Of a stretch of DNA of 64,000 nt, positions 23,757 to 29,853 are shown one piece after another (the stretch's first letter is position 1; the number at the start of each line of letters is the position of its first letter). The position numbers were made by a program, and so were the translations under genes. The notes below the pieces were generated by a model that was given only the letters and a program-made list of their open reading frames with translations, did not search any database and was not told the origin of the DNA. Source of the stretch: Dictyostelium discoideum. Its lineage: Eukaryota. The stretch spans positions 3,136,001-3,200,000 of the forward strand of contig CM000150.2 in the NCBI GenBank assembly GCA_000004695.1. The letters are read 5' to 3'.

Positions 23757-25048
23757 TTAAAGCTCTAAAAAGTTTTTTTCAACCAAAATTTCATTATTAT
23801 CATTATTATTAATGTTATTATTAATGTTATTATTATGTACAGTATTTGATTGATTATTTGGTATCGCGTTAATTGAATCTATATCGATCACAATATTTTC
23901 TATGTTATTGTTACCATTATTTCTATTATTGTTATTATTATTTCTATTATTATTATTATTATTACTATTATTATTATTATTATTATTATTATTATTATTA
24001 TTATTATTATTATTATTATTATTGTTACTATTAATATTAATATTAATATTACTATTACTATTACTATTACTATTATTATTATTATTATTATTATTATTAT
24101 TATTATTATTATTATTATTATTATTATTATTATTATTATTATTATTATTATTATTATTATTATTATTATTATTATTATTACTAATAATATTATTATTACT
24201 ATTAATATTATTATTAATATTATTATTGTTAAAATTATTTATATCATCATTTGGATTATTAATATTAATACGATTAATTTGAAAAGGTTTATCATCACCA
24301 CCAGGGGTAACAATTTCTTCAGTATTATTAATTGGGAAATCAACAATTATTTCTTTTAAATTTATTTTGAGTTGACCAAAAAAAAATTTTCTATTGTGAT
24401 CTTCATGAAAAAGTGTTATGAACGATAAACCTGGATATTTTATGTGAAGTTTTTCGAAATAATTTTCAATCTTTTTTGAATTCTGAAAAAAAAAAAAAAA
24501 AAAAAAAAAAAAAAAAAAAAAAAAATATTATTATTAGAATTTGTGAATATCGAGCAAGATATTTTTTTTTTTTTTGAAAGAAAATGATTATCGTAAAAAA
24601 TTAGACTTACTTTTTTTGTGGACTTTGTTTGGAATAAATTAATAACCCATGTTGATAATATAAATAAAAATGTTGGAATGATAACAATAAAAAAGTAGGC
24701 AACATCTGCTTTGAAATAGAATAAAAAAAACAAATTTATAGCATGTAATAACACAGCCATTATTATATTTACAATGTGAATTATTTTATATTTATTTGAG
24801 GGTTCATTATATTCATTTGCTTTATTAACTACCTTTTCCAAAAAATCCTCTTTACTTATACAATATCGTATTTCATTTGGATAGAATGGAACAAATAAAT
24901 CGCCAAAGGCTTGTTTATTTAAATATAATTTATCTCTACCTTCATCAACTATATTATCTATTGCTATTTTCTCTTGTTTAATTTTATTTCCATATTGATA
25001 ATCATCTCTATCACCTTCACCACCAATTGTTTCTATACTTTCCATCAT
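23757..25048 (-). CDS. Hairpin two-TM membrane protein, paralog A of a four-gene tandem family, with long poly-N C-terminal exon
   Basis: Exon 1 25048..24611 encodes ...DKLYLNKQAFGDLFVPFYPNEIRYCISKEDFLEKVVN..., then two TM helices, then ..TKSTKK|gtaagt. Exon 2 24482..23757 begins NSKKIENYFEKLHIKYPGLSFITLFHEDHNRK... and continues into an (AAT)n-encoded poly-N run, ending ...IENIVIDIDSINAIPNNQ..EKNFLEL. The phase-0 intron sits at the same position as in paralogs B-D. Confidence 0.65.
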
Positions 25049-25446
25049 TTTATTTATTTTTATTTATTTTTTATTTTTTTATATTTTTTATATTTGTTTA
25101 ATTTTTTAATATTTTATACAAATTATATTAATTTAATTGGGTTTTTTTTTTTTTTTTTTTTTTTTTTTGATATTTTATTTTTAATTTATATAAATTTGTT
25201 CATCTATTTTTTTATTATTATTATTTTTTTTATTTTTTTTTATTTTTTTTTTTTTAATTATTTAAACTAATTTTTATTTTTATTTTTATTTTTTGTATTT
25301 TTTTTATTATTTATTAATTATTTATATATTTATTTATTTATTTTTATTTATTTATTTTATTTATTGATTTATTTTTTTTTTTTTTTTTTTTTGTTAAAGC
25401 CTACAAATATTGTTATCTAATTTTATTGGGTGATATATTTTGTTCT

Positions 25447-25490
25447 GGGTTTGGTTTGGTTTGATTTGGTTTGATTTGATTTGATAACAA
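25447..25490. repeat. (GGTTT/GATTT)n degenerate G/T-rich repeat, about 400 bp upstream of paralog A start
   Basis: gggtttggtttggtttgatttggtttgatttgatttgat. This is CA-rich on the gene's coding strand. Confidence 0.4.
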
Positions 25491-26115
25491 AACAAAAAAA
25501 AAAAAAAAAATAAAAAAAATAAAAAAAAAAAAATTAAAAAAAAAAAAAAAAATAAAAATAAAAAAAAAAAAAAGATACCCTGATTCCAAAAAACAAGTCT
25601 CTGACTTTAGGGAAATTTTTTTTTTTAGAAATTGAAAAAAAAGTGTGATATTTTTATTTATTTTATTTATGGAATGATAACAGTTTACAATTTCGTTAAT
25701 GAATTTTATTTTATAAAATTTTTTATAAATTTTTTTTTTTTTAATATTTTTAATATTTTTTTTTCGAAAAAGAAGTTCTTGGTGATTTAAGATACATATA
25801 TAAAATTTTAAAAATAATTTAATTAATTTTATTTTTTTTTTTTTTTATTTTTTTTTTTTTTATTTTCCAGAAATTATGATTTAAAATTTTTTTTTAAAAA
25901 AAAAAAAATCATTTAAGATATTTTTCCCTTATTAATATTAATGAAGTTTTTTTTTTTTTTTTATTTTTTTAAAAATTTTTTGAATAAAAGAGAAAAAAAA
26001 CTATTTTTGATTTATTTTTTTTTTCTATTTTATTTTTTTATATTTTTTCATTTTTTTTTTTTTTTTTGTAGATTTTTATTTTTATTTTTTTTTTTTATTT
26101 TTTTTTTTTAAGTTC

Positions 26116-27141: not shown

Positions 27142-27746
27142 TATTTAATTAATATAAAAACAAATAAAATAAATAAATAAATAAAAAATAAAAAATATAA
27201 ACAATAAAAAAAAAAACAACAAAAAAAAAAAAAAAAAAAAAAACAATAAAATATGTTTAATTTTCTTTTAATTTATTTTATGTAATGATATCCATTTTGG
27301 GGATATTTTTTTTATTAAATTTTATCTAGATCTCTAAAACACCATTTTTTTTTTTTTTTCAAAACAATTTATTAAAAAAGTCATAACAGTGTGAACATGT
27401 GGTTAACCAAAAATAAAAAATAAAAAAAAAAAAAAAATTTTAAAATTTTAAAACCAAATTGTGTGGTAATTTGGTTTTAAAATTTTTATTTGTGTCAACA
27501 CAAATAAAAACATTGTTTTATTTTTAAAACTTAAAATAAATTTTTATTTTTTTATTTATTTTTTACAGTTTTGTAATACTATATACTTTTATTTGTTATA
27601 TTATTTATTTTATTATTTTTTTTTATTTTTTTACTTATTTATTTATTATTTTTTTATTTTTATTTAAAAAATAAATATTGACCTTTTATTTATTTATTCA
27701 CTAATATACAAGAAAAAAAAAAAAAAAAAAATATATTTTTTTTTAA

Positions 27747-28674
27747 TTACAATATTTGGAATTTCTCAGAGTTTTGATTGTTATTAATATTGATTGGAGG
27801 TGATAATGATGGTACTTGTATTGTGACAATAATTTCTTCACATTTTGAATTATAGCTACCAAATAAACCAATTTGAGAGAATCTAGTTTTTTTGTTTTTA
27901 ATTTCATATTTTATTTTACCATCCTCACTGTAATTATTTTCTAAAGTTTTATATCTCTCTTTAATTGAATTCTTATCCTATTTATATATTAATTAATTAT
28001 TAATAGAGTTAAAAATATATTTCTATAAATAGTTTTTTTTTTTTTTTTTTTTTTTTTTTAAATAAAATTACGTTTGAAATTTTAGCAACTATAATTGCAA
28101 TTAATAATAGTAAAGCAATAGCACCAATACCATATAAAATATAAGTTGAATAAATTGCTTGACCTAATCCAATTATTACACTTGCGGCAGCAATGAAACC
28201 GAGTGAAAGTATTGATAAGAAAATTATTTGTTTTATAAAATCAGATTTAGTGTAACAAGCGACATTATTTAATTCAGTTATAAATCCACAATATTTTTCA
28301 TATGTTACCCAACCTTCAAGTACACTTGGAAATATATCATTAAATTTATCACCTTTTGGTTTTTTTAATTTAATTACAATATTTTTATCATCATTATTAT
28401 CTTCAACAATCTCTAATTGTGGATTATATCTTAATGATTCAATTTCAATGCTATTATTATTATTGCTTTCTATTAAAGATGATGGTGGAGGTAGTGATGT
28501 TGTACTCTTATTTAATGATATAAAATCATTATTAATATGATGTTGTTGTTGATGATGATGTTCGGAGTGGTTGTTATTGTTATTGTTGTGATGGGTTGGT
28601 TGTGGTGGGATGGAGTCTGAAGATTTATCAAGTGAGTTTATATTATTTTCATTATAAGTATAGTTATTGTACAT
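27747..28674 (-). CDS. Hairpin two-TM membrane protein, paralog C
   Basis: Exon 1 28674..28072 encodes ..NIVIKLKKPKGDKFNDIFPSVLEGWVTYEKYCGFITELNN.., then two TM helices, then ..AKISN|gtaatt. Exon 2 27977..27747 encodes DKNSIKERYKTLENNYSEDGKIKYEIKNKKTRFSQIGLFGSYNSKCEEIIVTIQVPSLSPP.. and is 77 codons long. Total 277 aa. Confidence 0.7.
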
Positions 28675-28917
28675 TTGGGTACTACTTTTTATTTACGATA
28701 TAGATATCGCCTCAAAAAAAAAAATAATATTTCAAATTTTTTTTTTTTTATTTTTTTTTTTTTTTTTTTTTTTTTTTTTTTCAGGGGAAAGGACAAAAAA
28801 GATATTTTTTTATTGTTTCAATTTTTTTATTTTTAAAATTTTTATATTTACAATTTACGAATGGTTTTTATTATTTTTTTTTTTTAAAAATATTATTATA
28901 ATTATTATTTATATTAT

Positions 28918-29853
28918 TTACAATTGATAGTTTGTCATTGGTTGAATTTGTTGTTTGTAACATTGATATTCATTTGGATTATGAAACACATAGGCAGTTC
29001 TAATATAGGTTGGGTATTCAATTATTAATGAAGTTTGGTTATATTCAAATTCTCCATCACCTTTTTCTTTCTTCTCAAAGACACCTTTAAAAATTAATGG
29101 ATTGTATTTTTGACTTAATACACCAAAAAAGTTTTCATATCCTTGTTCAATACTCTATAAAAATATATATATGTATATTAATATATTTTATAAATTATTT
29201 TTATGTTTATTTTTTTATTTTTTTTATTTTATTCTATTTTTTTTCTTTATACATACAATTTTAATTTCAGTATTTTTGGTAAAAAAGAAATATAATACTT
29301 TTGAAATTAATGCAATTAAAAATAATAATACACTAACTACTACAGCTGCCCTATATAATTTAGCGATTATAAAAAATACTAATATTGAAATAAAACAAGC
29401 CAAGAATATCCAATCAAAAACTTTAAATTTAATTCTATTTTTAAATGATGAAAATGATGATTTTTCAAATAATGCTTCATTGGAAATATTATTTATTAAA
29501 TCAATAACTTCAATATATTCTTGTGGATTTATGTATGGCGTTAATTCACCATAATAAACATTATTATCAAACAATAATGTTTTTTTACTTTTATTTAATA
29601 CCAATACATTATTTAATTGTTGTTGTTGTTGTTGTTGTTGATTTTGTGCTTGGATTTGATAGACTTGTGAAGTTGGTTGATGATTTGTTTTTGAGAGTGG
29701 TTGTGATGGTAGTGGTGGTACTGATTGTGAAATTGTACCATAATTAACATTTATATTTCTTTGTGATTTGTTTAATAATAATGGAATATTTAAAATTACA
29801 TCACTTTCGCCACTATTTATATTTTGGTTATATGTATTAATATTAGTGTTCAT
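28918..29853 (-). CDS. Hairpin two-TM membrane protein, paralog D
   Basis: Exon 1 29853..29257 encodes ..LVLNKSKKTLLFDNNVYYGELTPYINPQEYIEVIDLINNISNEALFEK.., then TM1 (FDWIFLACFISILVFFIIAKLY), TM2 (VVVSVLLFLIALISKVLYFFF), ..EIKI and donor gtatgt. Exon 2 29154..28918 encodes SIEQGYENFFGVLSQKYNPLIFKGVFEKKEKGDGEFEYNQTSLIIEYPTYIRTAYVFHNPNEYQCYKQQIQPMTNYQL. Total 277 aa. Confidence 0.7.

Follow-up and report, generated by a model that had tools for sequence, protein, structure and literature searches.

What kind of protein is encoded by a cluster of four look-alike genes on chromosome 1 of Dictyostelium discoideum AX4, and what might such proteins do? The genes, here called A to D, lie on the same strand inside 6.1 kb of a 64,000-nucleotide stretch (the window) of a 4.92-Mb contig. 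Our analysis supports an old, conserved tandem array whose products are probably remote homologues of GOLGA7 (GCP16)/Erf4, made as integral membrane proteins, and are candidate accessory subunits of DHHC enzymes.

The minus strand was read from position 23500 to 30100 and all frame-restoring GT..AG introns were enumerated, which gave one obvious model per gene (Table 1), each with splice sites of the Dictyostelium type. All four two-exon genes were recovered exactly where a preliminary description of this DNA had placed them. The second exons of A, B, C, and D encode exactly the 241, 76, 76, and 78 residues given there, respectively, and every intron is in phase 0 just after the second transmembrane helix, also as described. 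The identical intron position claimed for the four genes holds as an equivalent site. The introns lie 6-7 residues upstream of the exon-2 E-x-Y motif and agree to about 1 residue, the linker alignment being too loose for the sites to be called strictly identical. When all six frames of the entire window were scanned with the family hidden Markov model (HMM), only these eight exons matched, and no fifth copy was found in the window.

The four proteins share one architecture. Hydropathy analysis identified two hydrophobic helices in each of them, and AlphaFold models of C and D contain the same two, in line with the transmembrane hairpin first proposed. The membrane helices are predicted to be ~22-25 residues long, sufficient to span the bilayer. 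The elements follow in the order strand beta1, cytosolic helix alpha1, two membrane helices, cytosolic helix alpha4, and strands beta2 and beta3. Helix alpha1 carries the motif F..(F/Y)P.EL..(Y/I)I....(F/Y)...I..IN, whose F and N vary little or not at all among the members, and alpha4 carries (I/M)E.Y..L...(Y/F). Long and variable low-complexity extensions are attached to this core, N-terminally in B, C, and D and as an Asn-rich C-terminal tail in A. The variable low-complexity N-terminus initially ascribed to every copy is therefore found in B, C, and D but not in A, whose N-terminus is short and not of low complexity. The poly-N extension ascribed to A is present, the C-terminal ~190 residues of its 241-residue second exon being Asn-rich.

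A profile search of 1.84 billion representative proteins, which A entered as two exon fragments, returned only 10 relatives. These are proteins of Dictyostelium species and a few unnamed metagenomic or transcriptome sequences. D. purpureum contributed DICPUDRAFT_157758, _80621, _81950, _149056, and _82042, and P0011, P0013, and P0014 are metagenomic; these proteins have the architecture and motifs of A-D. P0007, P0008, and P0009 are orthologues of B, D, and A, respectively, in syntenic context. D. purpureum P0010 (DICPUDRAFT_149056) and P0012 (DICPUDRAFT_82042) lie on other scaffolds, away from the array. No D. discoideum counterpart of these two turned up in the representative-protein search, and family size therefore differs between species. 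A word-indexed homologue search with D alone found only the D. dimigraforme orthologue, and the family alignment as query yielded nothing further except close Dictyostelium copies. None of the 10 relatives has been given a Pfam annotation or functional name, and no public annotation among the records examined ties A-D or their relatives to Erf4.

Pairwise BLASTP among A-D was not significant (best E 0.038), though profiles connected the four genes. For each gene, a leave-one-out profile was built from all family members minus its own orthologues and compared with 2000 composition-preserving local shuffles. A, B, C, and D scored 43.3, 19.7, 34.4, and 58.1 bits, respectively, against 25.4, 17.1, 23.5, and 20.8 bits for the best shuffles, and none of the 2000 reached the real score. 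In hhalign comparisons between single orthologue groups, only A against D was convincing (E 3e-5, 148 columns), and the A, C, and D groups matched a profile of the non-orthologous P0010-P0014 at 96-97% probability. Judged by sequence, B is the most diverged paralogue, with the weakest link to the others. Because profiles, position, orientation, architecture, and intron site agree, a common origin of A-D as tandem paralogues is well supported, as had been supposed.

The array is also conserved beyond D. discoideum. In D. dimigraforme, all four genes recur in unchanged order, flanked by a CBM49 gene and an amidohydrolase gene, and each is interrupted at the corresponding site by a phase-0 intron. 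The D. purpureum array is divided among scaffold ends, with the flanking genes retained. There, the A-like gene adjoins amidohydrolase, M20 peptidase, and methyltransferase genes; the D-like gene adjoins a RhoGAP gene and is accompanied by a further family member at the scaffold end; and the B-like gene is preceded by a family member at a scaffold start. All D. purpureum array genes have an exon break at family-HMM positions 110-112. Since the array is present in both D. dimigraforme and D. purpureum, it is older than the split of these species, and the syntenic array with its shared two-exon break supports the old lineage-specific expansion suggested earlier. Nei-Gojobori ratios of nonsynonymous to synonymous substitution rates (dN/dS) between D. 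discoideum and D. dimigraforme were 0.22, 0.25, 0.21, and 0.15 for A, B, C, and D, respectively, and all four genes are therefore under purifying selection.

The link to GOLGA7/Erf4 came from profile searches. With full-length proteins, the Pfam family Erf4/GOLGA7 (PF10256, gathering score 29.3 bits) was matched only by B (E 2.7). Trimmed cores were searched as well, and with these PF10256 was matched by ten of the eleven family members and was the top Pfam match for A, P0009, P0010, P0011, P0012, P0013, and P0014. A, D, B, and C scored 20.9 (E 3.7e-4, profile positions 17-68), 14.7, 14.1, and 13.5 bits, respectively, and the best score in the family was that of P0011 (27.7 bits, E 2.9e-6). 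Other weak Pfam matches (SUR7, DUF2207_C, Claudin_2, DUF202, and others) lay only on the hydrophobic helices, varied by member, and were rejected. When 11- and 14-sequence family profiles were searched against 177,635 PDB sequences, the GOLGA7 chains 8hf3_B and 9oa6_B were the top two matches (E 0.006-0.01), and the HMMER alignments to 8hf3_B covered residues 32-88. A four-sequence profile gave no meaningful match in the PDB, and phmmer of P0011 against the PDB gave chance matches only. With a vertebrate GOLGA7 alignment, hhalign returned E 3.7e-5 and 71% probability over 33 columns. When the alignment was relaxed to full length, beta1, alpha1, the post-membrane helix, and the last strand still paired collinearly, but confidence was negligible beyond the motif.

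The preliminary description had found the family unassignable to any known domain, a view that is not supported here, given that PF10256 recurs, mostly as the top Pfam match, and that GOLGA7 is the best PDB sequence match. That description had also named a clear HMM hit as what would place the proteins in a known family. We found consistent HMM matches below threshold together with agreement of fold, but not a clear match. The LITAF, reticulon, and caveolin families, which it had excluded, are all absent from the Pfam matches with E values up to 10 and from the top structure matches listed. Members of the LITAF/SIMPLE-like, reticulon homology domain, and caveolin families resemble A-D in having two close hydrophobic segments with both ends on one side, but they are without the flanking beta/alpha cytosolic domain of A-D.

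Structure prediction agreed with the profile matches. AlphaFold2 was run on a 14-sequence family alignment that held no GOLGA7 sequence, and the models of D and C reached a mean predicted local distance difference test (pLDDT) score of 78.9 and 70.2, respectively. Both consist of a strand, a helix, two long helices with a tight turn, a strand, and a strand, the second long helix running on into the cytosolic helix. GCP16 and Erf4 combine a three-stranded antiparallel sheet with two cytosolic helices and carry a membrane-inserted pair mid-chain (10.1101/2022.12.12.520165). This core order, with a sheet of beta1, beta3, and beta2 and a cytosolic helix on either side of the membrane pair, was found in the family. 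Human GOLGA7/GCP16 (PDB 8hf3 chain B, 9oa6 chain B) and A-D have the same succession of beta1, alpha1, two membrane helices, alpha4, beta2, and beta3, and they hold the alpha1 motif F..FP.EL..I....F...v..lN in common (QF.TKFP.EL...I....FE.TV..LNN in GOLGA7). The most economical reading is that A-D are a divergent, transmembrane-anchored branch of the GOLGA7/Erf4 fold, which we regard as likely, the resemblance then reflecting homology rather than convergence.

The known members of this fold differ from A-D in how they meet the membrane. The accessory proteins of DHHC9-GCP16 and Erf2-Erf4 have two membrane-inserted helices and no transmembrane helix (10.1101/2022.12.12.520165). The two short helices of GOLGA7 merely insert in the membrane, whereas A-D are predicted to have two full transmembrane helices. 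GOLGA7 is also without the long low-complexity N- or C-terminal extensions of A-D. Yeast Erf4/Shr5 (Erf2-Erf4, PDB 8HFC), which shares Pfam family and core fold with GOLGA7 and stabilizes its DHHC enzyme, has extra N-terminal and beta-strand insertions but keeps the RDYS motif and has no transmembrane helix. Located after beta1, RDYS makes contact with the zinc-finger domain of the DHHC enzyme, and binding of GOLGA7 to ZDHHC5 depends on it (PMC12528901; 10.1101/2022.12.12.520165). It is replaced in the window proteins by NKQA, RKRE, KKPK, and NKSK.

Several observations weigh against A-D being GOLGA7-like DHHC subunits. As read from the alignment, they keep only a basic residue at the RDYS site, without Asp, Tyr, or Ser. 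GOLGA7 is held on the membrane by S-acylated cysteines, and no cysteine is conserved across the four proteins. No family member reached the PF10256 gathering threshold, and the confident hhalign stretch spans just ~33 columns. The models of C and D share one shallow 14-sequence alignment and are not independent of each other. A Foldseek comparison of the models with the PDB, a check proposed in the preliminary description, gave no significant match. B, in addition, matched the P0010-P0014 profile with an hhalign probability of only 31%. The missing RDYS motif weakens the case for an accessory role in particular. That A-D still act as accessory subunits of DHHC S-acyltransferases, as membership of the family would suggest, is a possibility to which we give slightly less than an even chance.

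If they do, the two short membrane-dipping helices of GOLGA7/Erf4 would have become two full transmembrane helices in a tight hairpin, which would place both ends and the small beta-sheet/helix domain on the cytosolic face. Each paralogue would dock onto a DHHC enzyme via its membrane helices and cytosolic domain and stabilize that enzyme. The transmembrane anchor would take over from the S-acylated cysteines of GOLGA7, and the four copies might serve different DHHC partners, compartments, or developmental stages. With the RDYS contact lost, binding would rest on transmembrane-helix contacts. The fuller scenario, in which dictyostelids turned a lipid-anchored GOLGA7/Erf4 subunit into an integral one and then multiplied it at least fourfold, with binding through such contacts or with a new function, is put forward tentatively, and we consider it rather unlikely in this complete form.

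The fold could also have outlived its partner. Descendants of GOLGA7/Erf4 that no longer work with DHHC enzymes might, for example, be small membrane scaffolds or adaptors whose variable tails recruit proteins. Such a loss is compatible with the similarity to GOLGA7 in fold and sequence, with the long, variable terminal extensions, and with the absence of RDYS from all dictyostelid members (alignments against PMC12528901). The ZDHHC9-GCP16 interface residues Y18, Y76, R118, and R121 are likewise not recognisably conserved. However, the groove that faces the DHHC enzyme in GOLGA7 is built from beta1/alpha1, the stretch best conserved in the family, together with the alpha4 motif, and the conservation of these parts under purifying selection fits a retained partner. 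The present data suggest no alternative partner or function either, and we consider this explanation improbable.

A more doubtful proposal is that A-D belong to a genuinely new, dictyostelid-restricted family of hairpin membrane proteins that have come to resemble GOLGA7/Erf4 by convergence or by chance. The Pfam scores below the curated threshold, the Foldseek result, and the mere 10 relatives among 1.84 billion representative proteins would all be expected of such a family. Against this, the match is not confined to the hydrophobic helices and takes in the beta-strands and both cytosolic helices in order. We give a new family little credence.

The gene models are matched by independent records to different degrees. 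The deposited AX4 proteins DDB_G0269622 and DDB_G0270584 agree with models B and D, respectively, at every residue. Model A has the same 387-residue length as a gene call in another D. discoideum assembly, which is a second prediction only. For C, the exon junction (...TTTCAAAC joined to GATAAGAA...) was found exactly on two short Logan contigs that lack the 94-nt intron. These contigs, from runs SRR24091727 and SRR24091726, encode P0015 without interruption, a protein one residue different from C, and as intron-less transcripts they demonstrate that C is expressed and spliced. The transcript check of splice junctions called for at the outset thus confirmed C, whereas no transcript evidence was found for A, and D (P0003) had no entry in the contig index. 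Another Logan contig of 1030 bp (P0018; window ~28009-28674) has a 224-residue product that runs from C exon 1 into the intron, where its poly-A run differs in length from that of the window; the contig represents genomic DNA or else a transcript that retains the intron. In the annotation of one public D. discoideum assembly, D and C are joined as one protein of 557 residues (KAM9941188.1, P0004; window 27747-29853). The fusion seems to be a mistake of gene prediction, since C is represented by separate transcripts that begin upstream of its ATG. The strong AT-richness of the window (GC 11-22%), its many spurious open reading frames, and this fused annotation could suggest a gene-prediction artefact or decaying pseudogenes in AT-rich, low-complexity DNA, but that reading is refuted, with next to nothing left in its favor, by the spliced transcripts of C, by reading frames that are intact and intron sites that are kept across three species, and by dN/dS values of 0.15-0.25.

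Table 1. Positions in the 64,000-nt window of the four genes, their parts, and the flanking genes (aa, amino acids; nt, nucleotides)
Feature	Position	Strand	Description
Gene A	23757..25048	minus	exon 1, 25048-24611; exon 2, 24482-23757; 387 aa
Gene A intron	24610-24483		128 nt, phase 0, GTAAGT..CAG
Gene A beta1 and alpha1 (DKLYLNK...F..FYPNEI..CISKEDFLEKVVNKANEY)	24809..24934	minus	Erf4-like motif
Gene A transmembrane hairpin	24629..24787	minus	two hydrophobic helices; hydropathy
Gene A alpha4, beta2, beta3 (KKIENYFEKLHIKY...IIVDFP)	24333..24476	minus	start of exon 2; exon-2 open reading frame matches family HMM at 52.7 bits
Gene B (DDB_G0269622 / Q55DK8)	26116..27141	minus	exon 1, 27141-26461; exon 2, 26346-26116; 303 aa
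Gene B intron	26460-26347		114 nt, phase 0, GTATGT..TAG
Gene B first transmembrane helix	26724-26656	minus	
Gene B Asn/His-rich insert	26548..26655	minus	36 aa; loop between first and second transmembrane helix
Gene B second transmembrane helix	26547-26473	minus	
Gene C	27747..28674	minus	exon 1, 28674-28072; exon 2, 27977-27747; 277 aa
Gene C intron	28071-27978		94 nt, phase 0, GTAATT..TAG
Gene C transmembrane hairpin	28078..28239	minus	hydropathy and AlphaFold model
Gene D (DDB_G0270584 / Q55DK7)	28918..29853	minus	exon 1, 29853-29257; exon 2, 29154-28918; 277 aa
Gene D intron	29256-29155		102 nt, phase 0, GTATGT..TAG
Gene D beta1 and alpha1 (NNVLVLNK...LF...YYGELTPYINPQEYIEVIDLINNI)	29485..29613	minus	aligns to GOLGA7 residues 25-57
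Gene D transmembrane hairpin	29281..29427	minus	two long helices, 3-residue turn in model
M20 peptidase fragment, flanking	19978-21129	plus	
Dihydropyrimidinase-like amidohydrolase, flanking	21203-22848	minus	with intron
CBM49-type protein, flanking	30724-31461	minus	with (T-E-T-P)n repeat
Large RhoGAP protein, flanking	34613-38422	plus	

Further observations concern single members and the surrounding DNA. The tail of A (23757-24330) is a nearly pure Asn-rich tract of ~190 residues, encoded by (AAT)n with Ser, Ile, and Arg interruptions, preceded by the conserved domain and followed by a short C-terminal end (...EILVEKNFLEL) that is conserved as well. Its length varies, the protein having 387 residues in D. 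discoideum and 355 in D. dimigraforme, while the last residues are kept. In B, the hairpin loop that carries the insert (..GKHSHAHAHHNKSK..) is expected to be luminal or extracellular. D. dimigraforme has the insert too, and D. purpureum P0007 has a much shorter version that is not rich in His. The insert could serve in metal binding, or it may represent nothing more than drift of low-complexity sequence. Very long homopolymer runs occur in the introns (24483-24610, 26347-26460, 27978-28071) and in the A-B spacer (25049-26115), among them T36 ahead of the acceptor site of A, A40 inside the intron of B, and spacer runs of 20-30 A/T. The order of the flanking genes (window 19978-22848 and 30724-38422) is unchanged in D. 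dimigraforme and D. purpureum.

P0011 is an intron-less gene for 165 residues on metagenome contigs L005 (5914-6498) and L006 (JGI 3300056817, 3300055001) and was seen on more than 14 contigs from several sources. It matched the family HMM with 115 bits in one open reading frame, and its neighbors are small open reading frames, one of them for a ubiquitin. The contigs have 41-45% GC and are therefore not Dictyostelium-like. P0011 has R-A-Y in place of the R-D-Y of GOLGA7, and its Pfam Erf4 score is 27.7 bits against the threshold of 29.3 bits. This protein may be a bridge between the family and Erf4. Literature searches returned nothing relevant on these gene identifiers or on Dictyostelium with Erf4, GOLGA7, or DHHC.

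Several DHHC palmitoyltransferases depend on accessory subunits for their stability, activity, and choice of partner. To our knowledge, the accessory forms described so far (GOLGA7, GOLGA7B, Erf4) are all lipid-anchored and non-transmembrane. If integral-membrane versions without the RDYS contact prove true, the fold would tolerate very different kinds of membrane anchorage, and binding based on transmembrane helices would amount to a separate way of regulating DHHC enzymes that has not been described before, or the proteins would have a fully new function. The impact would be moderate, in that a known family would be refined and no new field opened. Dictyostelium would nevertheless gain four or more candidate S-acylation regulators in a genetically tractable organism, and genes now named just "hypothetical" or "transmembrane protein" would have a functional lead.

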